A DNA stretch of 32,000 nt from Nostoc linckia FACHB-104 (GCA_014696615.1 JACJQJ010000063.1:1-32000), one strand, 5' to 3'. Positions 12,505 through 28,900 are shown, counted from the first letter of the stretch. Notes: a model not told the origin generated them from the letters alone. Numbers and translations are program-made.

Positions 12505-13017
12505 GTGGCAACCAAAAAATATGTAGCTAAGTATCGCTTCCTCAAAGAAACTTACGAGCGCATCACAGTCAAAAGTATTTCAGATATCACTTGGTATCGC
12601 ATAGTTGCATCTTTGAAACAATATTTTTCGCTATCAATTGAATCAGCAAATGCTCAAAGTATTGTTGAAAACTATGCTCAATTGAAGCGCAAGTGTCCAG
12701 CCTTTTCTTTTAGAACTTCTGATTTTAGTTCACGCTGGCAAGCCTTTAAACATTTCTATGATGCAAGAGAAGTTCAATACACAGGTCAGCAATTCCTAGT
12801 TGCGCTTGCAGACTATTTAAAAATCAATCTTGATGATGTACCCCGCAGTACTCGTTACTACTGGTTTAGCCAAGCAACTCTAAGTTATAAATCCGAGAAA
12901 TCTTATCACAGCAAAGATTTAGCGCTTGTCGCCTTTGTTGCCGCTAAATGGGCAATCAACAAGCGCTCGCAACCAATGAAATCCGCAACCATCGAAGTTT
13001 TAACACTAGTCAAATAA
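12505..13017 (+). CDS. Hypothetical protein
   Basis: 170-aa ORF with a GTG start and no recognised motif. Confidence 0.5.
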   Translation: MATKKYVAKYRFLKETYERITVKSISDITWYRIVASLKQYFSLSIESANAQSIVENYAQLKRKCPAFSFRTSDFSSRWQAFKHFYDAREVQYTGQQFLVALADYLKINLDDVPRSTRYYWFSQATLSYKSEKSYHSKDLALVAFVAAKWAINKRSQPMKSATIEVLTLVK

Positions 13018-13029
13018 GGATTAATCACC

Positions 13030-13692
13030 ATGTCAGACAAATTTACTAACAATGTCCGCGCTCGCTTGTACAAACAGGGTTATCAAGGATTCACCAAAGA
13101 AGATTACACAACATCTGCTCAAGCTGTAGAGTGCGAAGACCTAAACAATCCCACCAAAGACCAATTGAGCCAAGCCGTTGAATATCTCAAAACCAAAGCA
13201 ACCAGCCAATTATCTGTAGCCAGCCAAGCCGTTGAAGAAACATTACCAATACAAGCTCTAGCTGCACAGCCTGAGCCTGAATCTCATCAACTTGCAATTG
13301 CAGAACCAGAAATTAACGGTATCACTGTAACCAGTGAAGATAAGCATTCCTTTATCACAGCCCAATCATCAGCCTTGGGATTTGAATTAACCGAACAAGA
13401 AACATTAAGTATTGCACAAGATGTTGACGATACCTTTAGTGACTACAGCCAATTCCTCAGCAATGTAACATCTGCAATTAAAAGCTACGTGGATCATAAA
13501 TTTGATGTCATCGAGCAATCATTTGAAGCTAACGCCCAAGACTTGAGACAACACGTAAACAGTAGAGCGTCTAGATTGAACCAAAAAGTTAACAGCTTTT
13601 CAGGAGACATTAAAGCGGATATGGGAGGTATCCGCCAAAACATTAAAAGCACCCAATTCTCAATCCTTGCCAGACTCAACGCGGTTAAATAG
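13030..13692 (+). CDS. Hypothetical acidic protein
   Basis: 220-aa ORF with AAGGA upstream, lying 12 nt after the previous stop. Confidence 0.6.
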   Translation: MSDKFTNNVRARLYKQGYQGFTKEDYTTSAQAVECEDLNNPTKDQLSQAVEYLKTKATSQLSVASQAVEETLPIQALAAQPEPESHQLAIAEPEINGITVTSEDKHSFITAQSSALGFELTEQETLSIAQDVDDTFSDYSQFLSNVTSAIKSYVDHKFDVIEQSFEANAQDLRQHVNSRASRLNQKVNSFSGDIKADMGGIRQNIKSTQFSILARLNAVK

Positions 13693-13738
13693 CGATAAAT
13701 TGACCTTGCTTGAATGCTTGGTAGTTCGTTATTGCAGA

Positions 13739-14014
13739 ATGAACTATTTCTCAAGAATAGCTGGTATTTTGGGTACGCTTGCTGCTGTGATTTTCCCCTT
13801 ACATAACTGGCTATATCTGCCAATAAAAGAGCATCAGCAATATCAGCAATATCTCCAACGTAAATCAGCTATTGAGCAATATGTAAGAACAATGTCTTAC
13901 CACTGCAATCAAATCTTTACCCCCCTAAAAGAGTATCGCTGTGAAAAATTCAATGAAGCTCAAGAATCAGGTAACTTCCAAATCACGCCACTTAGAACGC
14001 CAATTAAAAACTAA
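13739..14014 (+). CDS. Small hypothetical membrane protein
   Basis: The ORF track gives 13667-14014. The ATG at 13739 avoids overlap with the previous gene. Hydrophobic IAGILGTLAAVIFPL segment. Confidence 0.35.
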   Translation: MNYFSRIAGILGTLAAVIFPLHNWLYLPIKEHQQYQQYLQRKSAIEQYVRTMSYHCNQIFTPLKEYRCEKFNEAQESGNFQITPLRTPIKN

Positions 14015-14594
14015 GTTCAACGCATCTACTAACTTAGTAGTGAGAGCGCTAACAGGTGATAAATCAGCACTGAAGCTGATAGGACAAATGGGCAACGATG
14101 GCGCGAAGATTAGTGAATTCGCCCCACAAGTAAGAGAACAAATGCTAGCTGCTATCAAAGGAACTGAGGATTTAAATGTAGTCCTCAGTGACATCTACAA
14201 ACAAGCAGGTGTTAGCGGTGAAAAGATTGAAAGAGCAGTGCAGTCAGCAATTTTAGCTGACACCCATTTAGCCAATATCCTAGAAGAGATGAAGCTTGAT
14301 TTCGCTTCATCCCAAGATAAAGAAGCGCTGCGTCATCAACAAGCAACAGACCACATCAGACTAAAGGCATGGGTGGATAAACACATGATGCAGGTTGATG
14401 GTGAATATAAGATGTTGCAGACCGAATTACAAACCGATATTAGACAACAAACAATTGACCTGCAACATGATAGAGAACTGGGTAAATATTACCTAGAAAT
14501 GGGCGATAACGCTCGTGATGATTTCAAACCGAAAAAGCAATATGCTGGGCGCTCGATTGTCCAGAAAATCAAAGAAGCCTTATTAGGCTTTTAA
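13941..14594 (+). CDS. Hypothetical protein (start uncertain)
   Basis: 217-aa ORF. Alternative in-frame starts are GTG at 14040 and ATG at 14088 (AGGA upstream), either of which would remove the overlap with 13739-14014. Confidence 0.5.
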   Translation: MKNSMKLKNQVTSKSRHLERQLKTKFNASTNLVVRALTGDKSALKLIGQMGNDGAKISEFAPQVREQMLAAIKGTEDLNVVLSDIYKQAGVSGEKIERAVQSAILADTHLANILEEMKLDFASSQDKEALRHQQATDHIRLKAWVDKHMMQVDGEYKMLQTELQTDIRQQTIDLQHDRELGKYYLEMGDNARDDFKPKKQYAGRSIVQKIKEALLGF

Positions 14595-14597
14595 TAA

Positions 14598-14638
14598 CTA
14601 ACCCCGTCAGTAACTTGAGATAAGTGCTGACGGGTTAG
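14598..14638 (+). terminator. Hairpin between operon genes
   Basis: ccccgtcag (14602-14610) pairs with ctgacggg (14627-14634), with additional A:T pairs outside. No T-tract, so it may be an attenuator or an RNA-processing site. Confidence 0.3.
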
Positions 14639-14658
14639 AGAAATAATCCGATACAAAC

Positions 14659-15228
14659 ATGACATACGATATTGATGATGAACAAGAAGAAGTAATCAGC
14701 GAAATTGCTCCAGACACCCCTTTACCCAAAGACTTAATAGAACACCTGGAATCCCGCAAGCAACACCGCCAAGCTATTATCAAGACAACTGAAAAATTAA
14801 CGAGATTTTTTGTTGGCTGGTCGCTCAATTCAACAGGCTTCTTTATCGCTAAATATCTTCTAATAACTGGCGGTGGCGTTAACTTCTTCTTAGCAATTTC
14901 GCTCTCGTTTTCTATATGTAGCGTTGGTTCTCTCACAGGATTAACAGGCTTGAGAGTTAACTACAACAGTGATGGGCTAGAGGTAGATAATATGCAAAAT
15001 ATTTTTAAAACTGCTGCTGGCTTAGTCTGTGCAGGTGTGACAACTTGGTTAGCAGTCAAAGACTATCAATATTTTGAGCATTTGACTAAAGAAACAGTCA
15101 GCCAGATTAACCAAGATATCCAAACCATTGAAAAACAGAATCCACAATCAGACCCTTGGGTAAGTATTGCAGTTGCCTTGGCTTTATTCATTGGTTCGAT
15201 TGCAATTATTTTTAAGGGGCGAGAATGA
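14659..15228 (+). CDS. Hypothetical integral membrane protein
   Basis: 189 aa with an acidic N-terminus and at least three hydrophobic segments (FFVGWSLNSTGFFIAKYLLI, NFFLAISLSFSICSVGSL, WVSIAVALALFIGSIAIIF). Confidence 0.6.
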   Translation: MTYDIDDEQEEVISEIAPDTPLPKDLIEHLESRKQHRQAIIKTTEKLTRFFVGWSLNSTGFFIAKYLLITGGGVNFFLAISLSFSICSVGSLTGLTGLRVNYNSDGLEVDNMQNIFKTAAGLVCAGVTTWLAVKDYQYFEHLTKETVSQINQDIQTIEKQNPQSDPWVSIAVALALFIGSIAIIFKGRE

Positions 15229-15231
15229 ACA

Positions 15232-16686
15232 ATGAAACAGGGGGTTTTGGAGTTAGCCCTGGCTAGTGTGTGTGGTGTGGCTGCAATCATCGGGCTTGCA
15301 ACATCACAAACACGCCAGCCCTACGATTTGACACAGATTCAGTTCTGCCCAAAGTCAATAAACGGCGTACAAAGTCAAATAAAGCTAGATAAGCGTTTTT
15401 GCAACCAGCCGCGCTTTGTCCTGGCTGAAGAATGGCGACGCTATGGGCTATATGGCAGCATGATTCCTTATAAGGGTGATGCCATTCAATGGGTGCGTGA
15501 TTTGCCCACAGACAACCCTAATCAGTTGTTGGGTGGTGCGCTTGGTGTTATGGGGCTATGGGGTATTGTCGGTTGCTTGCTTGTGCGTACACAACGCCTC
15601 AAGCGCAAGGATTATGAATTGGGAGAACTAGAAAAGACTGGCGGCTATGCAATTTGGCAGCAACACAAGCACAAACGTGAAGTTAAGCAGCATTCCACCC
15701 AGCTTTATACTGAGCGTTTAAAGGATGGGTTGTCAGGACTGGACACAGAGGAACGCAAAGCACTAGGACTGACTGATGAGGAGAACGAACGGGCTAAGGC
15801 TCGAATTCAGCTTGAGGATTTTCTAAAAGCTCGTGCTGTTAATCATTCTGTGATGGATAAGACGATTGCTGAGAATTTAAGGGACAGAGCGAAGGCGGAG
15901 CAGGAACGCAGCAAGATTGAGGGGAAGACCAAAGGCGCGATCGCAAATAGTGACAGCCATAATTTAACTGACCAGCGCCTCATCAGTGACTTAATCGAAG
16001 CGCTCAAGAATCATGAAGATGGCTGGCTGTGGAAGGTTATCGACAATCAAAAGCCCGTTTGGGTGTTAGGAGAAGCGGGAAGTGGTAAATCAACTCTAGC
16101 CGCGTCGATTGTCATGCTCAGAGAATATCTGTTTGATATGCCTTTGTATCAGCTCATAGATGCTCACGCCGGAGACAATTTAAGAAATGCATGGAAATAT
16201 TTAAGTCCTCAGTTGATAGCGCAAACAGAATCAGATATTGGACAAGCTTTTGATGATGCCCGCGAGCGTTGGTTAGACAGAATTAATAATCAACCTGATA
16301 AACAACCGCAACAGTTACTAGTTGATGAATTTACTAACTATTCTGAGTCAGATATCACCAAGGAGCCTGCGAAAAAGTTTGTTAAAGCGTCTCTTAGCGA
16401 CCCTAGAAAGGCAGAAGAAAGATTAGTTTGTATTGCCCATTTCTTCACTAATACTGCTGTTGGTGGCAGTGATGGAACTGCTAAAGGTAGAAGCAGAGGC
16501 ACTATTCAAATTGACCGCAAAACTGCTGATGGTAAAACACCTTTGAAAGTCGCAATAGTTAACGGTTTAAATAATTCAGAGGGGGACGCAGAAGTAGATA
16601 AAAAGGTGACAATTCCAAGTTGGTTGACTCCTGAAAATATTCACAAGCATTTTAACGGTCAGCCGATTGATTTTGATGATGTGTGA
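15232..16686 (+). CDS. Membrane-anchored P-loop NTPase of unknown function
   Basis: Two N-terminal hydrophobic segments, Walker A GEAGSGKST and Walker B-like QLLVDEF. The start is 3 nt after the previous stop. Confidence 0.7.
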   Translation: MKQGVLELALASVCGVAAIIGLATSQTRQPYDLTQIQFCPKSINGVQSQIKLDKRFCNQPRFVLAEEWRRYGLYGSMIPYKGDAIQWVRDLPTDNPNQLLGGALGVMGLWGIVGCLLVRTQRLKRKDYELGELEKTGGYAIWQQHKHKREVKQHSTQLYTERLKDGLSGLDTEERKALGLTDEENERAKARIQLEDFLKARAVNHSVMDKTIAENLRDRAKAEQERSKIEGKTKGAIANSDSHNLTDQRLISDLIEALKNHEDGWLWKVIDNQKPVWVLGEAGSGKSTLAASIVMLREYLFDMPLYQLIDAHAGDNLRNAWKYLSPQLIAQTESDIGQAFDDARERWLDRINNQPDKQPQQLLVDEFTNYSESDITKEPAKKFVKASLSDPRKAEERLVCIAHFFTNTAVGGSDGTAKGRSRGTIQIDRKTADGKTPLKVAIVNGLNNSEGDAEVDKKVTIPSWLTPENIHKHFNGQPIDFDDV

Positions 16687-16720: not shown

Positions 16721-16847
16721 GAACTGGGAGTAGAGCGGGTGGCGCAGCGGAGTGTGGGGGGCGGGCTGCCCAGGCGTGGGCTACTCCATGAGTAAATTAT
16801 TGCCCGTCCCCCACACCACCCGCTCTAAGCGCAGCGTCTCCCAGTTC
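16721..16847. repeat. 127-nt GC-rich imperfect palindrome (three-helix long hairpin)
   Basis: Helices are 16721-16730/16838-16847 (10 bp), 16731-16742/16816-16827 (12 bp) and 16752-16766/16802-16816 (15 bp with one G:T). The two opposed internal loops each contain GCGCAGCG (16742-16749 and 16829-16836). Confidence 0.7.
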
Positions 16848-17011: not shown

Positions 17012-19408
17012 ATGTTGCACCCAACCATGCCCCAGGACTTCTCCGGACAAAATCTTCGTGGGCGCTCCTTCAGGGGACAAAACCTTGAGGGAGCAAATTT
17101 TAGTTATGCAGATATCCGGGGTGCAGATTTTACCGGGGCGAATCTGAGAGGCGTAAGCTTCCGACACGCTAGAGCAGGACAAGAAATTCGGTGGTCTATA
17201 TGTATATTAATATCTTCATTAATTCTGGCATTACTATCGGGTATTGTTGCAGTAATTGCTGGTAGCAGTCTTTATCATATATTTGTGCTGCCTTTTACAT
17301 TTGTTGTCAATAAAAATTTCTGGTATTTTATTCGAGACTACATATTCATTATTAATTTAATAATATTAGGATTATTTAGTTTTCTATTTTTTCTGTTTAT
17401 CCGGAAAGGACTTGATATAGCTTTAAAAATTGTCACGTTTGTAGGAGCTATCGCTGGTGCAGGTATTGTAGTTATATTTGGCAATACGGCTACGGCTTTA
17501 AAGGGATTATTTAATTACTCGAATCTTTTTAAAAAAGAAGTTGAAAAAGCAGGAGTGCAAATTCCAATTCAAGATAGCATTGTCATAACTGAAGAAACTC
17601 AAAAAGCTCTACAAGTTATTCAAGAGCGTATTCAGGGGGAATTTATCGAGGCTACTAAACCATTAGCTGTAGCTTGGTTTGGATTTATAGCTTTGCTAGT
17701 GTTTGTATCTGTTGCTGGAGTTATAGTTGGAACATTTTCTTTAACCGCAGCTATAGCTGTGGCTGTCAATATAACTGAGGCTTTCACTATTGTCGCAGTT
17801 GGGATTTCCATTCCGTTTGTGATTATTGCAGTAGAAACTGAGAAAATCAACAGGATTTTACTTGACATAACAATGGGGCCTATACTGCAAGAATCTGTTA
17901 GTTACTTGGTAACTTTGAGTTCCAATGCTTGGATATTACTTGGTATTTATCTTAGTTGGCGCTCTTTATCTGGATACAAAAATTTTATTTTGATTCAGAA
18001 ATTTTCTATCGCTATTGCAACAATAGGTGGTACAAACTTTCACAGAGCTAACTTAGTAGATGCTGATTTTACTTATGCAGTGCTTAAAAACACAAATTTT
18101 ACAGCAGCTAATGTAACTCGTACATGCTGGTTAAATACTAAAAAACTAGACCTGGCTCGTGTTGATCAAACTTATCTTGACAATTCACAAGTACGGAAGT
18201 TACTGATTACAGGTGAAGGACAAGGCAAAAGTTTTGACTATCTATTTCTGCGAGGTATTTATTTGCGTGGAGTAAATTTAGCGGAAGCTAGTTTCATAGG
18301 TGCTGATTTAAGTGAAGCTAGCTTGCAGGATGCGAATTTATCCAGAGTTAAACTAAAACAGACGCAATTAGATGGAACTGACTTTACAGGTGCTTGTCTT
18401 ACCGGAGCCTACATAGAAGATTGGGGCATTACCAGTGATACCAATTTTGATGGCGTAAGGTGTGAGTACGTTTATATGCACCTACCCACCAAAGAGAATC
18501 CTGACCCTCTCCGCAAACCAGATAACAATAAAGAAGTTTTTTCAGATGGGGAGTTTGGTGATTTTATCAAGCCAATTGTTGACACACTTGACCTCTACCA
18601 TAACCAAGGTGTTGACCCGCGTGCTATTGCAATTTCCTTTAAGGAGTTAGCAGAGAATCACCCTGATGCAGAGCTTGAAATTGTAGCAATGGAGAAACGA
18701 GGTGAAGATAAGTTTTTACTTCGTGCTAAAACCGCAGCTACGGCTAATAAGTCCCAACTGAGTGCAGAATATTTTGAAATTTATAATCAACTCAAGTCAT
18801 TAGCCGAACAAGAATTAAAAGCATTGATAGCAGAAAAAGATAGCAGAATTCGTAGTTTAGAAACTATGGTCATGACGGCGCTAGAGCGTCCCAGCTTTTA
18901 TTCAAATATTCAAGTAGAAGAGGTAGGTACTATGACAAATAACCCCGGTGGTTTTTCAATTGGTGGTTCAGTTGGCGGCAACGTCAACAACGTTCAAGGT
19001 GACAACAACCGCGCAGTGCAAGGGGACAATAATCAGGCTGTGCTTGGAGACAATAATCAAGTTACACAACAAAATCAAGTGGGTGCAGATAGTTCTGAAT
19101 CGCTCACAAAAGAAGATGTAGTTAAATTACTAGCTCAACTAGAAACTTTGATTAAAGGGGCAGAAATACCAGCCGATACCAAAGAAGAAATAGTAGAAGA
19201 TTTGAGTGCTGCCAAAAAAGCCACAGACAAAGAAGAACCAAATAAGCAACGAGCATTAGACCGTTTGGGAACTGTGGCAGAAACACTTGAAAAAACTAGT
19301 AAGACTGTAGAATCCGGTCATAAAATCTGGGCAACAGCCAAGCCGATTATTATGAAAGTTGCAGCTTGGTTGGGTGCGGCAGCAGGTTCTCACCTTTTGG
19401 GATTGTAA
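17012..19408 (+). CDS. Multipass membrane protein with N-terminal and central pentapeptide repeats and a C-terminal Asn/Gly/Gln octad-repeat motif
   Basis: Pentapeptide repeats (NLRGRSFRGQNLEGANFSYADIRGADFTGANLRGVSF, then NLAEASFIGADLSEASLQDANLSRVKLKQTQLDGTDFTGACL). A hydrophobic region of about 280 aa sits between them. A coiled-coil segment follows, then NVQGDNNRAVQGDNNQAVLGDNNQV. Confidence 0.85.
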   Translation: MLHPTMPQDFSGQNLRGRSFRGQNLEGANFSYADIRGADFTGANLRGVSFRHARAGQEIRWSICILISSLILALLSGIVAVIAGSSLYHIFVLPFTFVVNKNFWYFIRDYIFIINLIILGLFSFLFFLFIRKGLDIALKIVTFVGAIAGAGIVVIFGNTATALKGLFNYSNLFKKEVEKAGVQIPIQDSIVITEETQKALQVIQERIQGEFIEATKPLAVAWFGFIALLVFVSVAGVIVGTFSLTAAIAVAVNITEAFTIVAVGISIPFVIIAVETEKINRILLDITMGPILQESVSYLVTLSSNAWILLGIYLSWRSLSGYKNFILIQKFSIAIATIGGTNFHRANLVDADFTYAVLKNTNFTAANVTRTCWLNTKKLDLARVDQTYLDNSQVRKLLITGEGQGKSFDYLFLRGIYLRGVNLAEASFIGADLSEASLQDANLSRVKLKQTQLDGTDFTGACLTGAYIEDWGITSDTNFDGVRCEYVYMHLPTKENPDPLRKPDNNKEVFSDGEFGDFIKPIVDTLDLYHNQGVDPRAIAISFKELAENHPDAELEIVAMEKRGEDKFLLRAKTAATANKSQLSAEYFEIYNQLKSLAEQELKALIAEKDSRIRSLETMVMTALERPSFYSNIQVEEVGTMTNNPGGFSIGGSVGGNVNNVQGDNNRAVQGDNNQAVLGDNNQVTQQNQVGADSSESLTKEDVVKLLAQLETLIKGAEIPADTKEEIVEDLSAAKKATDKEEPNKQRALDRLGTVAETLEKTSKTVESGHKIWATAKPIIMKVAAWLGAAAGSHLLGL

Positions 19409-19417
19409 AACTGAATT

Positions 19418-20551
19418 ATGAGTCAGTCGCCTGAGAACTTGGAACCACAACAGCCTGATGCAAATTCAACGCAGCAGGCTGATAGTTCCACATCTCAAAA
19501 TGTGGTGCAGGGGAATCAAAATCGAGTTATTCAAGGGAACGACAATAAGGCAGTTTTGGGTAATAGTAACACCGTAGTTTATGGAAACAACAACCAGATA
19601 CAGTTTGTTATTCCCAGCACTGAAAAGTTACAGCAACAGCAACATGAACGGGAAATACCTTCTTTATTACCCTATTTAGCCAACCGTAGCGAGCAGGAGT
19701 TTGAACTAGACAAGTCCATCAAAAAGCTAATAGAAAAAAATCCTCCTTATCCTCTAATCTGTATCATTCATGGTGATGAGTATCAAAGCCATGACAAGTT
19801 TTTAGAACGCTTGCATAAAGTTTCGTTACCTAAGTTTTTAGGACTAGATCCTAACCAAGACTTAATTAAAAAATATCATCTTCCCTGTTCTGCACAATTA
19901 AAGAATACGTATGACTTCTCAGATTACTTACGCAAAAATTTATCAGATAGCGTTACGGGAGATAGTTTAGCTTCTCTAGAAGAAATTAATGATTTTTTCT
20001 ATAAATGTTCTATTCCAGTCCTTGTTCATACTCATTTATTTACTGAACAATGGACAAGGCAAAGATTTGATATTTTGCAGAAGATACTGGATTTTTGGCA
20101 GGAATGGCCTGTTCTTCGGAGTAGCCAAAAAATAATAGTTTGTATATTTATTAAATACAAAACTAGGCGTAAAAAGTATACGAATAATTCGTTTAAAACA
20201 TGGTTATTCAGTTTTATAATTTACTTGTTAAAACAATATCGCCACCAGAGAGTTAATCACAAAATTTGTCGGTATATAGAAACCTTATCACTATCCAACT
20301 TTGAAAAATTTAATCGGTTGTCAGGAGTCGCTTTACCAAAGCTTATTGGAGTGAAACGAGAAGATGTTGAGAATTGGGTTCGTATGGAATATACTCAAAC
20401 CGTCATTGGAGAAGCAATGGCTGATAAACTCTTCAAAGAAATTAGAGAGTTATTTGACAAATGGGAAGAACAAAACTCATCCAATATAATTCCGATGGAT
20501 GATTTAGCTGATAACTTAATCAAACTTCTGAAATCTAATTTATCAGGTTAG
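19418..20551 (+). CDS. Adaptor-like protein: N-terminal octad-repeat motif plus a P-loop-less NTPase-like (possible inactive STAND) domain
   Basis: N-terminal VVQGNQNRVIQGNDNKAVLGNSNTVVYGNNNQIQF matches the C-terminal motif of the upstream protein. It is followed by LLPYLANRSEQEFEL and PLICIIHGDEYQSHDKFLERL with no GxxxxGK[ST]. The inactive-STAND assignment is from memory and tentative. Confidence 0.65.
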   Translation: MSQSPENLEPQQPDANSTQQADSSTSQNVVQGNQNRVIQGNDNKAVLGNSNTVVYGNNNQIQFVIPSTEKLQQQQHEREIPSLLPYLANRSEQEFELDKSIKKLIEKNPPYPLICIIHGDEYQSHDKFLERLHKVSLPKFLGLDPNQDLIKKYHLPCSAQLKNTYDFSDYLRKNLSDSVTGDSLASLEEINDFFYKCSIPVLVHTHLFTEQWTRQRFDILQKILDFWQEWPVLRSSQKIIVCIFIKYKTRRKKYTNNSFKTWLFSFIIYLLKQYRHQRVNHKICRYIETLSLSNFEKFNRLSGVALPKLIGVKREDVENWVRMEYTQTVIGEAMADKLFKEIRELFDKWEEQNSSNIIPMDDLADNLIKLLKSNLSG

Positions 20552-20562
20552 GGAGAAATTAT

Positions 20563-21576
20563 ATGAAGTTTCCGTTTTATGTAGGTGGTAGAACCCGTCA
20601 TGAAAATGAATTACCTGCAAAACTGCCAACTTCTCAGCGTTCTCAATTACTTAAACCAGAAAACTACATTCCAGATCCAGGTTTGAGGGATGCTTGCAAT
20701 GTGGCATTGTTGCTAGGACAACCTTTACTGCTGACTGGCGAACCAGGGACTGGAAAAACTCAATTTGCTTACAGTCTGGCTTGGGAACTAGGCTTTGGTA
20801 CTCCGCTAAAATTTGAAACCAAGTCCACTAGCACTGCCCGTGATTTATTCTACACTTATGATGCTCTAAAGCGGTTTCAGGATATTCAGAATCACTCTAC
20901 CTCAACCAAGCACTTGGATTACATCAATTATCAAGCTCTAGGACTAGCTATTTTACGCACTCGTGAGCCATCTGAGGTAAGTCAATATTTACCACCTGAA
21001 CTTTTACATAAGCAAAAAGTACGTTCTGTTGTACTAATTGATGAAATTGATAAAGCCCCTCGTGACTTCTGCAATGATGTCTTGAATGAGTTAGAACATA
21101 TCTATTTTCGAGTTCTAGAGTTTGGCAATGCAAAAATTGAAGCAGATCCAGAATTACAACCAATTGTGATTATTACTAGTAACTCTGAAAAAAATTTACC
21201 AGATGCCTTTTTACGTCGGTGTATTTATTATAATCTACCGTTTCCAGATGTAGAAACATTGCAGGATATTATTACTAATTATCTTGGCACTTATGTTGGT
21301 CACAGTAGCTCTTTTTTACAAATGGCTTTGGATTTATTCTATAGGTTACGCGCACCGCAAAGTGGATTAAGAAAAAAACCTGCAACTGCTGAGTTATTAA
21401 GTTGGCTAATAACTTTGCAAAAATTCACTTGCGATACAGATAATCCTTTAACTCAACCAGACAATGTCCTTTGTACTCTTAGTACCCTAATTAAAACTGC
21501 TGAAGACCAACAAAAAGCCACTAAAATTGTAGAACAATGGATAAAGGAACAGACAAAGGCATCCCGGATTGGTTAA
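20563..21576 (+). CDS. MoxR-type AAA+ ATPase
   Basis: Walker A LLLTGEPGTGKTQFA, Walker B VVLIDEIDKAPRDFCNDVLNELE and sensor region IVIITSNSEKNLPDAFLRRC. GGGAGA Shine-Dalgarno upstream. Confidence 0.9.
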   Translation: MKFPFYVGGRTRHENELPAKLPTSQRSQLLKPENYIPDPGLRDACNVALLLGQPLLLTGEPGTGKTQFAYSLAWELGFGTPLKFETKSTSTARDLFYTYDALKRFQDIQNHSTSTKHLDYINYQALGLAILRTREPSEVSQYLPPELLHKQKVRSVVLIDEIDKAPRDFCNDVLNELEHIYFRVLEFGNAKIEADPELQPIVIITSNSEKNLPDAFLRRCIYYNLPFPDVETLQDIITNYLGTYVGHSSSFLQMALDLFYRLRAPQSGLRKKPATAELLSWLITLQKFTCDTDNPLTQPDNVLCTLSTLIKTAEDQQKATKIVEQWIKEQTKASRIG

Positions 21577-24335
21577 ATCCTGACAGATTGATAGAGTTGA
21601 TTGAGCTACTAAGGGAAGCAGGGTATAAAATTGGTATTTCCCAGTATATAGCGGCTCAGGATCTAATTCTGTTCCTAATTGCTCAAGAGCCAACTTTAGA
21701 TAATCCACAACGATTGAGAACTTTACTTAGACCAATTTTTTGTAAATCTTTAATTGAGCAGGAAAATTTCCAATACCACTTTGATCATTGGCTAGAGTTA
21801 CTTAAACAAATTAGTCGTACTATTCATACAACAGAAAAAGCAAATTTAGAAACTCAAGAAGCATCGTACCCATCAAAAAAATTCAGCCCACGCTGGCGGC
21901 GATTACAGTGGATTTTGATATTTCTAGCACTTATAACAGGAACTTCTTTACTTCTGATTTATAGAAATAACACACAGACCCAACCAGGGACTAACCAACC
22001 AGGGACTAACCAACCAGGGACTAACCAACCAGGGACTAACCAACCAGGGACTAACCAACCAGGGACTAACCAACCAGGAACTAACCAACCAGGAACTAAC
22101 CAACCAGGAACTAACCAACCAGGGACTAACCAACCAGGAACTAACCAACCAGGAACTAACAATAATCCGAACTCTAAAGTAATCCCAATTAACTGGCAAA
22201 TCACACTTTATTTCTTACTTAGTCTCTGTTTTATTTATATAAGCTTGCGGCTGTTCTGGTTATGGCGAGCTAATTTATTTCTGCAACGCTCCAGTACAAG
22301 AACAATACCAGAGCTACAGACAATTTCAATTCCTGACTTGGAGCAAAATTTATTTTCAAGGAATTTGTTTATAAGAATCGCTAAGGATTTCAGACAGCGC
22401 ATTTTAGTTCCTACTAAAACACTGGATGTAGAGAAAACTATTGACGCATTTTTTCGGCATGGGGGTTGGGTAGAGCCAGTATACTGTAATTATACGGTGA
22501 TTCCAGAATATTTGTTTCTTGTTGAACGCACTAGCTATCGAGATCATCAATCTAAGTTTGTTGCCGAGATGATTGAGAGTCTCAAAAATGATGGAGTTTA
22601 CCTAGAAACTTATTTTTACGATGAAGATCCACGCATTTGCTTTTCAAGTGATGAACATAATTCCCCGCTAAAACTTCATGAAATCGCCACTAAATATCGT
22701 CAGCATTACCTCATTTTGGTTTCGGATACGGAAAAGTTGTTTAGTTCTATTAGTGGTGAATTAGAACCTTGGGTAAATCAACTGTTAGATTGGGAAAACC
22801 GGGCGATTCTCACACCAAAGCCAGTAAAAAATTATGGTTATGAAGAATTTGTACTGGCACAGGATTTTTTTATTTTACCTGCAACACCTAAAGGTTTGCA
22901 GGCATTGAGCCAAAAATTAAAACAGAGAACAGCAACTAATTATTATCCCATTGAAGAGATTCAATTACCTTTGCCTGAGTCTTTACGTACAAGACCTCTG
23001 CGTTGGATTGAGCGCAATTCTCCACCACCTGAAGATATTGATAAAATGCTTGTTTCCTTAGAGGAATATCTTGGTAAGGATAACTTTTACTGGCTTGGGG
23101 CTTGTGCAATCTTTCCACAGTTACATTGGAACATCACTGTTTATTTAGGTAATACTTTCAAAACAGAGGACGGGCATTCTTTGTTAGAATTAGCTTCGCT
23201 AACTAAATTGGCTCGCTTACCTTGGTTTCGTTTTGGATATATACCTGACTGGTTGCGTATTCGCCTGATTTCTAGCCTAACTCATGAACAAGAACATCAA
23301 ATCCGTACTGCGCTCCGAGATTTACTAATAAAAGCTGTTCATGATTCTGTAGGTGGATTGCAATTGGAAGTAGCAACACAATCTTATAGTTTTAGTTCCA
23401 AACTTGTTAATCCAATCCTTCGTATCTTATCTAAACAAGCTTCTGAAGATAGCTTATTAAAAGATTATATTTTTCTAGGCTTTATGACAAGATCGCCTGT
23501 ACTTGCTATAAGTGTACCAAAAGAGTTTAGTCGCTTACTACAAAGACAGAAAAGATATAATTCCTCTAAAAAAACACCACTGCCAAACTACCGTAGGCAC
23601 TTTTTGAAATGGGTTGCAATTAGAGGAGTAGTCTTGGCGACGGTAGTGGTAGTTCTTGAGACTTTACCACTTTATGATTTAAATAATTCTCTTCGGAGGC
23701 TAATAGAAAATATAACAGGTTTTGTAGTTACTGCACTTCTACCTCAAGAACTGAAAACCTTATTAGGGCATGATAACTCTGTCTTGAGTGTGAGTTTTAG
23801 CCCCGACGGTAAGACCTTGGCTTCTGGCAGTGCTGACAACACAATCAAACTCTGGAATTTAGATACAGGAAAGGGAATCCGCACCCTCAACGGGCATAGT
23901 GATTATGTCTATAGCGTAAGTTTTAGCCCCGACGGTAAAACCTTGGCTTCTGGCAGTCGTGACAAGACCATCAAACTCTGGAATCTAGAGACAGGCAAGG
24001 AAATCCGCACCCTCAACGGGCATAGTGATTATGTCTTGAGTGTGAGTTTTAGCCCCGACGGTAAAACCTTAGCTTCTGGCAGTGATGACAACACAATCAA
24101 ACTCTGGAATCTAAATACAGGACAAGAAATCCGCACCCTGAAGGGGCATGATGGCTCTGTCTTGAGTGTGAGTTTTAGCCCCAACGGCAAGACATTGGCT
24201 TCTGGCAGTAGTGACAAGACAATCAAACTCTGGAATCTAGAGACAGGCAAGGAAATCCGCTTTTCATATACTCCCCGACAATTTTCATTTTATCTGCGAA
24301 CCGACAACAACATTGATATCAATCGCCAGGGCTGA
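21537..24335 (+). CDS. CoxE-like vWA protein with TM segments, a PGTNQ repeat linker and a C-terminal WD40 array (apparently truncated)
   Basis: CoxE-like N-terminus (LIELLREAGYKIGISQYIAAQDL ... LRTLLRPIFCKSLIEQENFQYHFDHWL). A LDVEKTIDAFFRHGGWVEPVY segment leads into YLFLVERTSY, where the MIDAS motif would sit, and a later strand reads HYLILVSDTE. Hydrophobic segments WILIFLALITGTSLLLI, ITLYFLLSLCFIYISLRLFWLW and GVVLATVVVVLETL. Four WD40 units (SPDGKTLASGS..TIKLWNL). The first 40 nt overlap the MoxR gene, so the start is uncertain. Confidence 0.85.
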   Translation: MDKGTDKGIPDWLNPDRLIELIELLREAGYKIGISQYIAAQDLILFLIAQEPTLDNPQRLRTLLRPIFCKSLIEQENFQYHFDHWLELLKQISRTIHTTEKANLETQEASYPSKKFSPRWRRLQWILIFLALITGTSLLLIYRNNTQTQPGTNQPGTNQPGTNQPGTNQPGTNQPGTNQPGTNQPGTNQPGTNQPGTNQPGTNQPGTNNNPNSKVIPINWQITLYFLLSLCFIYISLRLFWLWRANLFLQRSSTRTIPELQTISIPDLEQNLFSRNLFIRIAKDFRQRILVPTKTLDVEKTIDAFFRHGGWVEPVYCNYTVIPEYLFLVERTSYRDHQSKFVAEMIESLKNDGVYLETYFYDEDPRICFSSDEHNSPLKLHEIATKYRQHYLILVSDTEKLFSSISGELEPWVNQLLDWENRAILTPKPVKNYGYEEFVLAQDFFILPATPKGLQALSQKLKQRTATNYYPIEEIQLPLPESLRTRPLRWIERNSPPPEDIDKMLVSLEEYLGKDNFYWLGACAIFPQLHWNITVYLGNTFKTEDGHSLLELASLTKLARLPWFRFGYIPDWLRIRLISSLTHEQEHQIRTALRDLLIKAVHDSVGGLQLEVATQSYSFSSKLVNPILRILSKQASEDSLLKDYIFLGFMTRSPVLAISVPKEFSRLLQRQKRYNSSKKTPLPNYRRHFLKWVAIRGVVLATVVVVLETLPLYDLNNSLRRLIENITGFVVTALLPQELKTLLGHDNSVLSVSFSPDGKTLASGSADNTIKLWNLDTGKGIRTLNGHSDYVYSVSFSPDGKTLASGSRDKTIKLWNLETGKEIRTLNGHSDYVLSVSFSPDGKTLASGSDDNTIKLWNLNTGQEIRTLKGHDGSVLSVSFSPNGKTLASGSSDKTIKLWNLETGKEIRFSYTPRQFSFYLRTDNNIDINRQG
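21981..22160 (+). repeat. 15-bp tandem repeat x12 (caaccaggRactaac), in frame, encoding (PGTNQ)n
   Basis: Twelve contiguous units differ only at one synonymous G/A position: units 1-6 and 10 have GGG, units 7-9 and 11-12 have GGA. Confidence 0.95.
23764..24260 (+). repeat. 126-bp periodic, near-identical WD40-coding repeats (4 units)
   Basis: gt(g/a)agttttagcccc recurs at 23790, 23916, 24042 and 24168 with long identical runs between units. Confidence 0.85.
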
Positions 24336-24586: not shown

Positions 24587-25138
24587 ATGAAGGTAGACGG
24601 CAACGGACAAGGCAAGATATTAAGCCAAGACGAATTACGGCGATTGTTCATCGAGGGTTTGCTTACCCCACGCGATCGCGCTCTGTTTGGCATCTGCCTG
24701 TTTACTGGTTGTCGCGTATCAGAAGCGTTGGCTCTCAACATGACTGATATCAAGTCTGGAACCATCACTTTTCGCAAGTCTACCACCAAAGGCAAGTACA
24801 AAACACGGATTGTAGACATTCCGCCAACGTTGGCGGCAATACTTGCAGAGTACCAGCTTAAAGGGGTAGTGATGTTCCCTGGCAAGCGCGGTGTCACAGA
24901 GCGTCTGACCCGATTCATGGCAGACAAGATATTGAGAGAAGCCTGCAAGCGCATTGGGGTAGAAGGAGTTAGCACCCACTCGTTTAGGCGAACTGCCCTG
25001 ACGCAGATGTCCAGTGCGGGGATACCTTTGCGAACTATTCAAGAAATTTCTGGGCATAGCGATTTAGGGACGTTGCAGCGTTATCTGGAGGTCACGCCGG
25101 AGCAGAAGCGGAAGGCGGTTTCGGTGATTGGGTTTTAG
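24587..25138 (+). CDS. Short tyrosine recombinase/integrase (catalytic domain only)
   Basis: GCRVSEALAL (Arg I), HSFRRTALT (HxxR) and GHSDLGTLQRYLEV (His/Tyr). It is 183 aa, and an in-frame stop 9 nt upstream of the ATG rules out a longer N-terminus. Confidence 0.85.
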   Translation: MKVDGNGQGKILSQDELRRLFIEGLLTPRDRALFGICLFTGCRVSEALALNMTDIKSGTITFRKSTTKGKYKTRIVDIPPTLAAILAEYQLKGVVMFPGKRGVTERLTRFMADKILREACKRIGVEGVSTHSFRRTALTQMSSAGIPLRTIQEISGHSDLGTLQRYLEVTPEQKRKAVSVIGF

Positions 25139-25174: not shown

Positions 25175-25738
25175 ATGCCCCGTCAACCTCGTCAAATAAA
25201 ACCCGATTACTGCTATCACATAACTACCCGTTGCAATAACCGCGAATTTAAATTGAGTCGTCGGGAATGCCGGGAGGTGTTTCTCTACGCTATTAAAAAA
25301 GCTTTCGATAAATTCAATTTTAAACTTTATGCTCTGTGCATAATGTCGAATCATGTTCACTATTTAATTGAACCATTAGAACCAGAAGACCTGCCCAAAA
25401 TTATGCATTGGCTCAACTGGTATACTGCCATGTGTTTTAATCGAATGCTCAACAGAACTGGTCACTTTTGGGAAAAAAGATATCACAGTTCAGGCTTCCC
25501 TATGACGAATAAAGATAGAGCATTAAATACCTTACGTTATATTCATGCTAACCCCTCTTCAGCAGGTTATTCTTTTGGCTTCTTTTACGAATTTAGCAAC
25601 TATGGTACTTATGACCGTTTAACAGACGATGGGATTACTCAATGGCATCCTGCTTTTCTTGAATTAGGTCAAACTCTAGATGAATGTGCAACAAAGTATC
25701 GCGGTTTTTGTAAACGCTATCGACCACCAAAGAAGTAA
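25175..25738 (+). CDS. REP-associated tyrosine transposase (RAYT) / IS200-like Y1 HUH transposase
   Basis: HUH motif MSNHVHYLIEP and catalytic Tyr region LRYIHANP. 187 aa. Confidence 0.85.
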   Translation: MPRQPRQIKPDYCYHITTRCNNREFKLSRRECREVFLYAIKKAFDKFNFKLYALCIMSNHVHYLIEPLEPEDLPKIMHWLNWYTAMCFNRMLNRTGHFWEKRYHSSGFPMTNKDRALNTLRYIHANPSSAGYSFGFFYEFSNYGTYDRLTDDGITQWHPAFLELGQTLDECATKYRGFCKRYRPPKK

Positions 25739-25928: not shown

Positions 25929-28900
25929 CTATTTTTTGGGTGGATTTGCTAGTTTTTTATTAATTATTACCTTTCCTTCCCATCCGTTCTTCGTTATCAA
26001 TTTCTCTCGACCTTCTTCGACTACTTCGACTATCCTCTTCTCTATCATCCCCTTCAAATATTTCTGTATCTTCAATCGATCTTCAGATTCATCCCTATTA
26101 ATCGATTCCACCACACAAACGCTTTTCATTCGGTTTATGAATTCGGTTTCCAAACGAACAACATCTACTCGCCCAATACTCCTAAAATATAAATTTATAA
26201 TTATTTTCGATATTTCTATTAAATATTTCGATAAATTCCAAGAAAAATCTAATAATTTATCATATAATTCAACACCAATTAAAAATATAAAAAATGAATC
26301 AAATAATGAATCTATTTGCTCATTTATTTTTTGGAAAAAATCTTTTTGGAAAAAATCTTTTGAATTTGAATTCTTCTCCTTTTTTCTAAATTTATAATTC
26401 ATATAAAATTCATATAAATCGTTTACTGTATACTTGTCTTTTAAACTCCTTACTCTTAAATATTCAAGGCTTTGCTGCTCGACGATATAAATTATATAAA
26501 GAGGAGAAATATTAGAAATTAGAAAACCTAGAACATTCTGCCCACAAAGGGTCTGAATATAACTCTCCCACTCCTTATGTCTAACACCTAGGGATTTTTT
26601 GAAATCTCGATTTTCTAAGGCTTGAATAAAACAGATAGGTATAATGAGTTTCAGATCAAAATCTCTCAGATATAGCTGGTCTATTACCTCAACTGGGTCA
26701 ATAAGTTTTTTGCTTATTATATTAGATATTTGTAATAAAATTGTATTAAGAACTGGCTCGGCTCTATAGGGTTTAACTATCCAATCAAAACTGCCAATCA
26801 GTCGAGAATAATCTTTGGGAAGTTGACAAGCATTTAGCATTGCCCTATATTTTTTCTGTTTAATTAAAGAAGCTAAAAGCAATGCAGCACGCAAAGCTCT
26901 ATTTTCGTCTTTATCCCACAGCCAATTAACTAAAGCTTGTAACGCACTGGGAGTAGGAATACCCACCAGAGCATCCATAACCTGATGAATAGAATCGGCG
27001 GTTACAACTTCCTCAATTTTAGGCACAGCTATATCGCCCATACGTATCAAAGCCTGATCTAAATTCAGGCGAAATTCTATATTATCCAAATTGGCATACT
27101 GCTGAGTTAATAATTCCGCCGCACTTGATAAGTTAGTCAACGACAAAGCATTTACGGCAGCCTTACGACGAGCATCTGTTTCACTTGTGTTCTCAAGGGT
27201 TTCTTTTAAAAAAGAGAACACCGAAGTACGTCTTCTGTCGTCCGCAGCGACTGCTGCAAAGGCATGATTTACTATATCCTCATTTCCATCTTCTCCCAGC
27301 CGGGATTTAAAACTATTAATAATTTCCAAAGCTAATGTCGAATCACATGCTTGAACATCAGCCAAACACTCAAATGCGACAACTGAATCTACGGTGCGTA
27401 CTTCTGTAATTAAATTTGTACTATCAGAAGCTATTCCACACCAAAGTTTTAGTGTTTCACGCCAAGTATCAGGGTCAGCTTTAAAACGACTAGTTAGACC
27501 ATCAGCATTGTCTCGTAATTGACTGGCTGCGAAAAATTCCTGTAAGGTCAAGTGTGCAAACTGGTAACGTTCACCGCCATCAATCTTCAGTAGCAAACCA
27601 TTACGCTCCACAATTTCAGACAAAATGGATCTGGTACAGTCAGGTTGAAGATTGAGACTAGGGAGTATGCCTGTTACTTGTGATTCAACAGTTATGCTAT
27701 CTACACTCCGACGGTCTTGCCCTTGTTGGTTAGCATTGTCTTGAAAGAAAAGTGCTAAATGCTGAAGTATAAGTTTTTTATCACGCGCTTGAAACAGGTT
27801 GCGTTCTTGATGCCATTGTTCTAGCAAAATGTCTGTTGCTTTCCGATAAAACTCTGCCCTTGAATGGGGTAGCACAGCAGGAGTATCAGCATAAAGATAG
27901 GCAATAATAGTAAGCATTAGCGGATTACGTGCCAGTTCCATAATTCGCGGTCGGTCATGCAATGTTTGTATAAGTTGCTCAACAGATTTCTCTGCTGGCA
28001 TATCTGGCTTCCACGGAACTAAAAATTCACGAATCTGTTGGTCGTTGAACTCAACAACTTCTAGCGTCTGATCTATGAAATCATTAAATTCCCCCCTATA
28101 AACAGCAGTACGGCAAGTAATAATAACAGGACAATCTTTATGTGTATCTAAAAAATCATTAATTAGGTCAACTACCTTTTGACGCTCATTACTGCTTACC
28201 TCGTCAAAACCGTCTAATAGCAGCAACAGCTTGTTTTTATCTAAACTTTGGGATACGAAGGATTGAGCATTAGGAAAACCATCCCGCGCAAAGGCTTCAA
28301 CCAATTGCTGCTCTACTGTCAATTCTTTATTACTGAATCGATGTAGCTCTACTAAAACTGGTACACATTTAAATTTTTTAAACAAATCTGCCCAACGGCC
28401 TTCAGCGTAGCAAAGAGCGATATATTTCAACAGCATTGTTTTACCCGACCCTGGAGACCCCTTTACCATAAGGCGGCGATACTTAGCTACAGCTTGAAAG
28501 GCATCAATTAAATCAGTGTCTTTAGTGCCTGTAACTTTGAGTGGAACGTATATGTCTTTTAGCTTTAAAGGTCTATTAGGTCGAAATGATATTTTTAAAT
28601 TCTCATGCTTTTCTTTCAATTCTTCTTTATAGTGTTTTAAGGCACTATGTCTCATGAATTGGAAACCTGAGAACCTGCCATATATTTGATTTCCTACTGT
28701 ATTAAAAATGCTACTAAACAAATTTATTAAAGTATTACCAAAAGCAGTACCAAAAGCAGTACCTATCAAAAGGATTAATAAGCCAATCCATCCATTTTCT
28801 GGCTTGAACAGTTCTCGCAAGTCCTTTTTCTTGGCTTCTCGTTGTTCCTGAAACGCTTTATCATATATTTTCCCAATCTCGAAAGGTTTCAGATTCTGGC

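Follow-up and report, generated by a model that had tools for sequence, protein, structure and literature searches.

Among the most elaborate immune or cell-death systems predicted in multicellular bacteria are the iSTAND, VMAP and related MoxR-vWA ternary systems. In vWA-MoxR subsystem 2 of Kaur et al. (eLife 2020, PMC7159879), an inactive STAND protein (iSTAND) is accompanied by a MoxR ATPase without VMAP-type extensions and by a vWA protein with a four-helix N-terminal domain of the CoxE type. The same authors reported transmembrane (TM) segments in about 28% of iSTAND systems, a highly variable C-terminal region, which often follows a TM segment if it carries cell-wall-associated domains, and, at the N-terminus of the iSTAND, domains that are adaptors or enzymes (PMC7159879); the iSTAND2 and TERNS3 relatives are described in a further paper (Kaur et al., eLife 2021, PMC8195603). 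The iSTAND ternary class is thus already catalogued, computationally only. The subject of the present analysis is a cluster of four genes, P1 to P4, in a 32,000-nucleotide (nt) stretch of Nostoc linckia FACHB-104 DNA (GCA_014696615.1 JACJQJ010000063.1:1-32000; the window), in which an initial annotation had seen a candidate MoxR-vWA conflict or signalling system. The cluster is probably an iSTAND-type MoxR-vWA ternary conflict system, serving immunity or regulated cell death, which is carried on a plasmid-like element and has an effector gene wired to it by a short shared tag.

In fungi and bacteria, prion-like motifs are known to connect immune receptors with partners that kill the cell. Motif sharing of a comparable kind is known from the BASS motifs, which are about 25 amino acids (aa) long and enriched in Q, N, G, V and I. 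They are found both at the C-terminus of a Bell-domain effector and at the N-terminus of its receptor, and the genes of the two are collinear and in many cases overlap or lie <= 10 bp apart; fibril and prion formation has been shown for BASS1 and BASS3 (Dyrka et al. 2020, bioRxiv 10.1101/2020.01.06.895854). In the Bab/Agp system, amyloid signalling between adjacent genes drives abortive infection in E. coli (bioRxiv 10.1101/2024.11.07.622273). The initial annotation had also remarked that vWA-MoxR ternary systems lack experimental characterisation. This is true of iSTAND systems, but a related pathway of MoxR, vWA and beta-propeller proteins, the Esr threat-sensing pathway of Actinomycetota, is supported experimentally in a 2026 preprint, in which a surface beta-propeller, MoxR and vWA sense epibionts (bioRxiv 10.64898/2026.09.08.750141).

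The cluster consists of four open reading frames (ORFs):

17012-19408, + strand: P1, 798 aa, a polytopic pentapeptide-repeat membrane protein and putative effector, with a C-terminal module of tag and four-helix domain (ORF, Pfam, hydropathy)
19418-20551, + strand: P2, 377 aa, an iSTAND (inactive STAND NTPase), third component of the ternary system (Pfam PF19995)
20563-21576, + strand: P3, 337 aa, an AAA+ ATPase of the AAA_5/MoxR type (Pfam AAA and AAA_5)
21537-24335, + strand: P4, 932 aa, a three-TM protein with N-terminal helical domain, TM1, (PGTNQ)12 loop, TM2, vWA-like alpha/beta core and helical domain, TM3 and four WD40 repeats (alignment, AlphaFold, hydropathy, repeat scan)

The spacing is 9 nt between P1 and P2 and 11 nt between P2 and P3, and P3 and P4 overlap by 40 nt; the coordinates and spacing of these co-oriented genes are exactly those of the initial annotation. 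The 377-aa product, described there as an adaptor with an NTPase-like domain lacking a P-loop, is an iSTAND by the very profile comparison that had been suggested as a check: residues 85-245 match Pfam PF19995 with E = 1.7e-21 and 77.7 bits, against a cut-off of 24. At the P-loop site P2 reads HGDExQSH, and HGDExQ(S/C)H is invariant, or nearly so, across 25 family members. The homologues of P2 fall into 103 clusters, almost all of them annotated as iSTAND, and one protein of Nostoc linckia FACHB-104 has 100% identity to P2.

When the alignment of iSTAND relatives was scanned against one genome per species, 30 loci were recovered, mostly from filamentous cyanobacteria but including two from Thermoanaerobaculia, one from a member of the Planctomycetaceae and one from a member of the Desulfococcaceae. 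Synteny was counted over the 25 loci having at least 3.5 kb downstream of the iSTAND gene, and in all 25 the iSTAND gene is followed on the same strand by a P3 orthologue (52-91% identity) and then by a P4-type gene. The junction between iSTAND and P3 genes in these relatives is mostly a 4-nt overlap, and P3 and P4 genes overlap by 16-40 nt. The iSTAND, the AAA+ protein and the three-TM P4 are an invariant, translationally coupled triad, and the co-occurrence on which the initial annotation had proposed to check its case is therefore borne out for the three core genes. The loci lie on plasmids, beside integrases, transposases and NACHT and NB-ARC genes.

In its order of iSTAND, putatively MoxR-type AAA+ and large partner with helical N-terminal domain, TM segments and hypervariable tail, as well as in its occurrence in filamentous cyanobacteria, the locus agrees with the published iSTAND ternary system. 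The resemblance to vWA-MoxR ternary systems that had been noticed from the window can thus be narrowed to the iSTAND type of Kaur et al. (2020), into which gene order, helical N-domain, TM segments and variable tail all fit. The architecture had also been called unusual, and this was an overstatement of its novelty, because TM segments (about 28%) and repeat or beta-propeller tails had already been reported for the class. The locus also follows the effector-associated domain (EAD) principle of the iSTAND systems, whereby the N-terminal adaptor of the iSTAND is duplicated on a neighbouring effector gene. It differs in that the adaptor is an Asn-rich octad repeat of about 35 aa, which is none of the 12 described EADs (alpha-helical or alpha+beta), in that the putative vWA domain is too divergent for Pfam, and in that the effector is a polytopic pentapeptide protein with a four-helix, tail-anchor-like end, a combination not found in the two Kaur et al. 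papers searched. What is new with respect to the published description is a repeat tag, predicted to be disordered as a monomer, as adaptor in place of a globular EAD; the use of one tag by both iSTAND and NACHT receptors on plasmids; and a putative tail-anchored four-helix/pentapeptide membrane effector.

The two copies of the tag are as follows:

18980-19084, + strand: Asn-rich octad repeat of P1, aa 657-691 (NVNNVQGDNNRAVQGDNNQAVLGDNNQVTQQNQVG), with a Gly-rich stretch before it at aa 641-656; effector-side coupling tag (match to P2)
19418-19603, + strand: N-terminal tag of P2, aa 1-62, with four octad repeats at aa 28-61; receptor-side coupling tag (match to P1)

Residues 657-691 of P1 and 28-61 of P2 (NVVQGNQNRVIQGNDNKAVLGNSNTVVYGNNNQI) are 53% identical over 30-32 aa (pairwise E = 2e-9), and the window has no further copy. 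The octads have the form x-A/V-V-x-G-D/N-x-N (xAVQGDNN), are rich in Asn, Gly, Gln and Val, and are encoded with a 24-nt tandem periodicity. The tag does not match any Pfam EAD family, and it is conserved at 81-88% in orthologous loci. The whole P2 leader of about 60 aa also heads Nostoc NACHT, nSTAND1 and FGE-sulfatase proteins, at 72-81% identity.

The association of tag and partner was counted over the 28 scan loci with enough upstream sequence. The C-terminal module of P1 lies directly upstream in five of six loci with an octad-tagged iSTAND and in none of the 22 whose iSTAND lacks the octad tag (Fisher p = 6e-5, some of the loci being closely related and so not fully independent). Among the 25 related loci in which the iSTAND has an N-terminal extension, 16 contain a second copy of the adaptor in the same locus. 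In the metagenomic loci L031-L035, a small tag protein precedes a tagged FGE-sulfatase, a tagged iSTAND, the AAA+ protein and a lysozyme-tailed P4, and on an Anabaena azotica plasmid a P1-like gene is followed by a tagged FGE-sulfatase, an iSTAND, an AAA+ protein and a TPR-tailed P4. The type of tag can also change in concert. In Nostoc minutum NIES-26, the P1-like protein keeps its pentapeptide, TM and middle parts and then continues into a different motif, NLQNAQFGGGLVNADTVTANQIGGNIIN, which matches the N-termini of the local iSTAND and NACHT proteins.

At least five Nostoc plasmids carry a P1 orthologue with a NACHT or FGE-sulfatase gene behind it. On pNPM5 a gap of 9 nt separates the P1 orthologue from the octad-tagged NACHT gene that comes next, and the homology of this plasmid to the window, at the protein level, ends at about nt 19600, just past the tag. 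As the homology stops at this point, the effector and tag travel together while the body of the receptor is exchanged. The shared leader, the non-random association, the recurring gene sets, the co-variation and this receptor swapping argue that the tag is a functional coupling element and not low-complexity noise. P1 could otherwise be a mere neighbour, its resemblance to P2 a low-complexity coincidence, and it is true that the motif is short and compositionally biased and that the pentapeptide family of P1 is very large and has many other tails. Such a coincidence is extremely improbable, given the p value of 6e-5, the co-varying tag of Nostoc minutum, the recurrence of the pairing with NACHT on at least five plasmids (at the same 9-nt spacing on pNPM5) and the three-gene tag sets of L031-L035. 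An effector supplied in trans through a shared motif, as the initial annotation had supposed, is thus upheld by the match between P1 and P2 and by the pairing of tags in other loci.

Two side observations belong to the Nostoc minutum locus (L014; 3569-5779, 7398-9419, 9503-10927 and 11898-15725). Its P1-like, NACHT and iSTAND proteins share a third type of tag, NAQFGGGLINA..VNAG.IGGDI.N, and its P4-type protein has for a tail an entire class A penicillin-binding protein, both the transglycosylase and the transpeptidase domain being present.

The first product of the cluster, P1, is the polytopic pentapeptide protein that had been recognised in the window. The pentapeptide repeats (Pfam E = 7e-29) occupy aa 10-54 and about 335-485, and hydrophobic segments lie between aa 63 and 278. 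The family defined by this pentapeptide and TM body comprises 1,173 representative clusters at E <= 1e-30; its members are typically 650-750 aa long and bear alternative C-terminal tails. The last 160 or so residues of P1 are made up of the Gly-rich segment, the octad repeats and a helical domain ending …WLGAAAGSHLLGL, the last part of which is delimited as follows:

19109-19405, + strand: four-helix domain at the C-terminus of P1, its last helix hydrophobic (…KPIIMKVAAWLGAAAGSHLLGL) (AlphaFold)

This C-terminal module has 124 homologous clusters, all cyanobacterial and nearly all from filamentous organisms. The homologues are mostly stand-alone proteins of about 158 aa beginning MTNNPGG, and none has a Pfam family. 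In the AlphaFold model the module forms a four-helix bundle with a predicted local distance difference test score (pLDDT) of about 90 and a hydrophobic last helix, whereas the tag has a pLDDT below 50. The module also matches PDC-M14B, a defence candidate of PADLOC, at E = 1e-7. The partner most often paired with the tag, and matched to the tag of the iSTAND, is the octad tag plus C-terminal four-helix domain. Because the pentapeptide/TM body carries alternative tails, the receptor-matched element of P1 is taken to be its tail (tag and helical domain), and the membrane body is a common but non-obligatory carrier of the tag module. The supposition that the tag module is only rarely fused to pentapeptide/TM proteins was rejected, since an exhaustive search found many relatives of 650-750 aa that match through the C-terminus.

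The third product, P3, matches Pfam AAA and AAA_5 above threshold and not AAA_3. It has a Walker A motif GEPGTGKT (aa 59-66) and a Walker B motif LIDEID (aa 158-164), and in an alignment of 17 sequences residues G59, P61, G62, G64, K65, T66, D160 and E161 are invariant. An intact AAA+ ATPase is therefore established. Its initial assignment to the MoxR clade is less firm: a P3 orthologue is named 'MoxR family ATPase' by the Prokaryotic Genome Annotation Pipeline (PGAP), but among MoxR-related structures a PDB profile search matched the P-loop region of midasin only. The best NCBIfam match of P3, 'MadB family AAA-type ATPase', lies far below cut-off, and a literature search gave no trace of it.

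The fourth product, P4, has the following parts:

21537-21821, + strand: conserved N-terminal helical domain (aa 1-95), highly conserved in 23 orthologues
21980-22160, + strand: 15-nt tandem repeat, 12.1 copies with 98% matches, encoding (PGTNQ)n between TM1 and TM2; probable periplasmic loop (repeat scan)
22314-22925, + strand: putative vWA-like alpha/beta core (aa 260-463) (AlphaFold, Foldseek, conserved motifs)
23601-23657, + strand: TM3, following the RR-containing, TAT-like NYRRHFLKW and dividing the presumably cytoplasmic core from the variable tail (hydropathy, Pfam TAT_signal in orthologues)
23745-24266, + strand: four WD40 repeats (aa 737-910), 3.8 copies of a 126-nt unit; variable tail (Pfam, repeat scan)

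The constant module of the P4 family is about 700 aa long and runs from the N-terminal helical domain and TM1 through a loop, rich in P, T and Q and variable in length, to TM2, and then through the alpha/beta core and helical domain to a stretch with RR resembling a twin-arginine translocation (TAT) signal and TM3. Kaur et al. unified the helical N-domain of the vWA proteins of iSTAND systems with the CoxE N-terminal four-helix domain (PMC7159879). The TM helices of P4 lie at aa 123-141, about 215-243 and 689-707 by hydropathy, and in three orthologues Pfam TAT_signal was matched at the position of TM3. In every orthologue the loop that links TM1 to TM2 is rich in P, T and Q, and its length varies; it looks prone to rapid length change, and a different repeat (NQTGT…) fills it in the Anabaena azotica orthologue. 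In the public annotation of N. linckia FACHB-104 the gene encodes a 588-aa 'WD40 repeat domain-containing protein'. The 932-aa ORF is favoured because its start (MDxGTxxN…WLNPD) and the N-terminal domain are conserved in 23 orthologues.

Clusters of Lys and Arg are found before TM1, after TM2 and before TM3. These positive-inside charges, together with the many orthologue tails that normally act outside the cytoplasm, suggest that the tail of P4 is periplasmic, the N-terminus and core probably being inside and the loop outside. The TM helices thus flank the core. This part of the initial annotation, in which TM helices interrupted a vWA-like core fused to WD40 repeats, has accordingly been revised, the C-terminal fusion to four WD40 repeats being retained.

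The vWA-like nature of the core, also proposed at the outset, is weakly supported, and then by structure prediction. No sequence method detected a vWA domain in P4, neither Pfam with the whole protein and with fragments, nor NCBIfam, PADLOC, phmmer or a profile of 23 sequences compared with PDB sequences, and the precomputed Pfam annotations of 76 P4-homologous clusters contain none; when the members of the family were scanned singly, VWA_CoxE appeared in one of 23, at E = 0.08. Residues 214-735 were modelled with AlphaFold2 from an alignment of 40 sequences; the mean pLDDT is 76.7 and rises to 85-95 in the core at about aa 260-463. When the model was compared with the PDB by Foldseek, the vWA domain of NorD from three NorQ-NorD complexes (9qh6_G, 9qhe_G and 9qhf_G) took ranks 1, 2 and 4, with E = 3.5e-4 to 2.3e-3 and a probability of 0.99-1.0; NorD itself partners a MoxR ATPase. 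The elements of the core follow the order beta1-alpha-beta2/beta3 hairpin-alpha-beta4-alpha-beta5-alpha-beta6-alpha, with a conserved SDTE after strand 4, and this order and the position of SDTE make it compatible with a vWA fold.

The tails that follow TM3 in P4 orthologues differ even between close relatives. They include FGE-sulfatase (the commonest), GUN4, WD40, pentapeptide, TPR, MORN, CVNH and phage lysozyme domains, as well as amidase_3, beta-lactamase-like, PhnD-type substrate-binding, class A penicillin-binding (transglycosylase plus transpeptidase) and multihaem cytochrome c domains. Those whose usual place of action is extracytoplasmic include the penicillin-binding, lysozyme, amidase, substrate-binding and cytochrome c domains. 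At the other end of the triad, the iSTAND N-termini of relatives bear TIR, trypsin, CHAT or effector tags.

An AAA_5/MoxR-type AAA+ gene beside a partner gene is also the arrangement of NorQ/NorD, CoxD/CoxE and RavA/ViaA, and the vWA domain of NorD is the best structural match of the P4 core. The locus could encode a housekeeping chaperone of this kind, which is not immune but matures or remodels a complex in the envelope or membrane, such as structures of the cell wall or septa of the filament. In the accessible parts of the literature, all experimentally understood MoxR-vWA pairs are maturation chaperones, and several P4 tails are peptidoglycan enzymes. The present locus differs from these pairs in having no cofactor-insertion client, in a three-TM partner with swappable tails, in the additional iSTAND and effector components and in its mobile-element and defence context. 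A housekeeping role is also hard to reconcile with tails swapped among close relatives, with iSTAND N-termini bearing TIR, trypsin, CHAT and effector tags, with loci placed on plasmids near integrases, transposases, NACHT and NB-ARC genes, with the P1 orthologue paired elsewhere with NACHT, and with the degenerate state in P4 of the metal-ion-dependent adhesion site (MIDAS), the motif for metal-dependent client binding. It is judged very unlikely.

The resemblance of the locus to the BASS and Bab-Agp systems lies in collinear genes 9 nt apart that share a short motif rich in N, Q, G and V, at the N-terminus of a receptor and on a small, helical, membrane-directed effector module, such motifs being known from multicellular cyanobacteria. 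As in those systems, the motif is also found on bona fide NACHT receptors, here at other loci. It differs from them in that the receptor is an NTPase-dead iSTAND presumably dependent on a separate AAA+ protein, and not a nucleotide-binding, leucine-rich-repeat-like receptor (NLR) of the NACHT or NB-ARC type; in that the motif stands N-terminal of the effector domain and not at the extreme C-terminus, and is an 8-residue repeat instead of a single unit of about 25 aa; and in that the effector domain has no detectable similarity to solved structures and the amyloid property is putative.

Motifs arranged as in the Bell/BASS effector and NLR pairs of Dyrka et al. occur in sister loci. Six iSTAND loci (L008, L010, L011, L012, L015 and L017) have another Q/N/G-rich N-terminal motif (…QQ-IG-N-GQ-IGQM-GG-A-N…), which recurs, as …GQxIGQMxGGEAKNIGxIGxVQGDV, at the extreme C-terminus of an upstream 147-aa protein (for example at 9506-9949 of L008). 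These 147-aa proteins begin with a hydrophobic helix (MDVxxLTxFLAPCLPFLL…) and appear Bell-like by eye; they have no Pfam or PDB match, and Bell itself is without a Pfam model. The six loci suggest that iSTAND receptors use BASS-like motifs more widely. The window itself contains a pair that reads as a textbook effector/NLR motif-sharing pair of the Bell/BASS type: an ORF at 2570-2992 (+) encodes 140 aa with a hydrophobic N-terminal helix and ends in ENWQGINIKGGKPTIKNNT, and the overlapping NB-ARC/TPR gene at 2989-5424 (+) begins with MTSENWQGINIKGGKPIIKNNT, the two motifs being 86% identical over 22 aa. A full-text literature search found no paper connecting iSTAND with amyloid motifs.

The octad repeat is weakly similar to the beta-roll family LbR_Ice_bind and to an ice-binding protein from a grass, whose beta-roll repeat has 7 residues. 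Two octads would correspond to one rung of about 16 residues, so that each protein would have about two rungs, as in HET-s. It is suggested, tentatively and with considerable doubt, that the octad tag is a prion-like, stacked beta-roll signal, and that the iSTAND is an amyloid-signalling machine switched by the MoxR AAA+ protein and a transmembrane vWA-like sensor, through which a periplasmic cue leads to a templated membrane executioner.

For the system as a whole, the following course of events is proposed. The periplasmic tail of P4, here the WD40 repeats, would bind an envelope-associated cue, and the change would be relayed across the membrane to the cytoplasmic vWA-like core. The core and the N-terminal domain of P4 would engage the hexamer of the MoxR-type AAA+ protein P3, which would provide an energy-dependent switch to iSTAND oligomerisation; a separate AAA+ switch would be needed because the iSTAND cannot bind or hydrolyse NTP itself. 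The clustered iSTAND tags would fold into a stacked, amyloid-like beta-roll nucleus and template the tag of P1. The tail-anchored four-helix domain of P1, its polytopic body, or both would thereby pass into a membrane-damaging form, and the affected cell of the filament would be killed or silenced. Both the direction of signalling and the membrane-disrupting activity are inferred.

Kaur et al. propose the opposite wiring for the class, in which the iSTAND is the sensor and the vWA tail the effector. Applied to the present locus, the iSTAND would be a cytoplasmic sensor of invaders, possibly binding nucleic acid, MoxR-vWA would set a threshold, and the outputs would be the vWA tail and the tag-recruited proteins, P1 among them, with the WD40 repeats as effector or scaffold. 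This is the published proposal, and some of the tails (lysozyme, amidase_3, beta-lactamase-like, class A penicillin-binding protein) are lytic enzymes and plausible effectors. Most tails, however, are non-catalytic binding modules (FGE-sulfatase/lectin fold, WD40, TPR, pentapeptide, CVNH, GUN4, substrate-binding protein), which favours the P4 tail as sensor and the iSTAND N-terminus, whose TIR, trypsin, CHAT and effector tags look like outputs, as the output. The same preference follows from the lectin-fold tails of related ternary systems, which are diversified by retroelements, as expected of sensors, and from the experimentally studied Esr pathway, in which a beta-propeller at the surface does the sensing, upstream of MoxR and vWA. 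The opposite wiring, the main rival, is therefore regarded as rather unlikely.

A MoxR AAA+ protein and a vWA protein coupled to an extracytoplasmic beta-propeller (identities that are putative for the present locus) are common to the present locus, to subsystem 4 of Kaur et al. and to Esr, a sensing role having been proposed for the propeller and, for Esr, shown. Esr differs in that the propeller is on separate, filamentous surface proteins and that a kinase/FHA phosphorelay leads to Esx secretion, with no iSTAND and no tag-coupled membrane effector.

It is also conceivable that the system is a decaying remnant in this strain, an integrase or IS200 insertion having cut the WD40 tail and left the system non-functional here. 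The WD40 array of P4 consists of only four repeats, stops abruptly at …KEIR and is followed by 25 unrelated residues (FSYTPRQ…) and the stop codon; directly downstream lie a 183-aa phage-integrase fragment (24587-25138) and an IS200/Y1 transposase (25175-25738). In the WD40-tailed relative L017, Pfam finds 15 WD40 stretches. Since the array breaks off just upstream of the integrase fragment and the transposase, the tail is probably truncated in this strain. All four ORFs are nevertheless intact, with conserved starts and conserved translational coupling, the tails of this family normally evolve through recombinational replacement, and four blades could complete a propeller by dimerisation. Loss of function in this strain, which would be compatible with either wiring, is accordingly thought unlikely. 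On pNPM5, a full tyrosine recombinase follows the NACHT gene, in a place equivalent to that of the integrase fragment in the window, which suggests that the region behind the receptor slot is a hot spot of recombination.

Several observations weigh against an iSTAND system that signals from a P4 sensor through an amyloid-like tag to a membrane effector. The class is known from computational prediction alone, and its authors wired it in the opposite direction, into which the lysozyme and amidase tails fit. The locus may be impaired in this strain, since its WD40 tail has four repeats and abuts mobile-element remnants. For P3, the PDB profile search returned the midasin P-loop region and generic AAA+ structures only, and no structure named as MoxR (NorQ, RavA). 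For P4, the target-normalised TM-scores of the NorD matches are 0.33-0.41, phosphoribosyltransferases follow within about 10-fold in E-value, and the MIDAS is non-canonical, DxSxS being replaced by (D/N/E)-R-x-S-Y…D. The four-helix domain of P1 has no significant fold or sequence match to solved structures and no detectable similarity to HeLo, Bell or Bab, and hydropathy alone gave no topology for P1, so that a cytoplasmic position of its tag is an assumption. The tag is of low complexity and stands N-terminal of the effector domain, the reverse of the Bell/BASS order, and its beta-roll or amyloid stacking is inferred from composition, periodicity, disorder of the monomer and genomic analogy. 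Tag and partner are also found apart. One locus with a tagged iSTAND, L005, has no partner, and in Moorena producens PAL-8-15-08-1 (L036) a 187-aa protein of tag and four helices is encoded at 7001-7564, no gene for an iSTAND, NACHT or AAA+ protein lying within 7 kb of it. The small tag protein can therefore be encoded apart from any receptor, and perhaps serves receptors in trans.

The locus and its relatives have a compact layout, with a swappable, probably periplasmic tail on a three-TM vWA-like protein, an intact AAA+ protein, an NTPase-dead STAND and an effector joined to them only by a tag of about 35 residues. If the tag works by templated beta-stacking, amyloid signalling would reach beyond NLR receptors; the need of an inactive STAND for a MoxR partner would be explained, and effector cassettes would be seen to be shared among receptor types on cyanobacterial plasmids. 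With such an interchangeable tag, a single effector cassette would be able to serve NACHT as well as iSTAND-MoxR-vWA receptors, and the ternary systems of the Aravind group would be joined to the BASS motifs of Saupe and Dyrka, a connection not found in the literature searched. Should the tag be no more than an ordinary adaptor, the locus adds a further member to a class already catalogued.

The remainder of the window is a conflict and mobile-element context, comprising NB-ARC/TPR and NACHT proteins, the integrase fragment, IS200 and a primase-helicase. Scans of the cluster for promoters and terminators gave no more sites than shuffled sequence, and an Rfam search of the window gave no match. 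In the 325-nt intergenic region upstream of P1 there is a GC-rich imperfect palindrome (16721-16847), likewise without an Rfam match, with outer arms of 10 nt (100% complementarity) and inner arms of 28 nt (75%) and 15 nt (93%); it may terminate the gene upstream or be a small mobile repeat. The backbone of the window (312-2377, 7963-10806 (-) and 12505-16686) is plasmid-like. It includes a protein at 852-1631 that, from its GDKGGTGKS motif, appears to be a ParA/MinD-like P-loop protein, a DUF3854/D5_N/DUF5906 primase-helicase at 7963-10806 (-) and a run of small hypothetical genes, of which 13941-14594 is distantly similar to a pNPM5 gene; the source contig is 47.8 kb long. Beyond the cluster and its mobile-element remnants lie two more genes of conflict type: a 1083-aa NACHT/HEAT protein with a hydrophobic N-terminal region is encoded at 25929-29180 (-), and the product of 29661-31970 (-), which from its N-terminal sequence is probably protein-kinase-like, carries a long WD40 array that is 52-58% identical to the repeats of P4.

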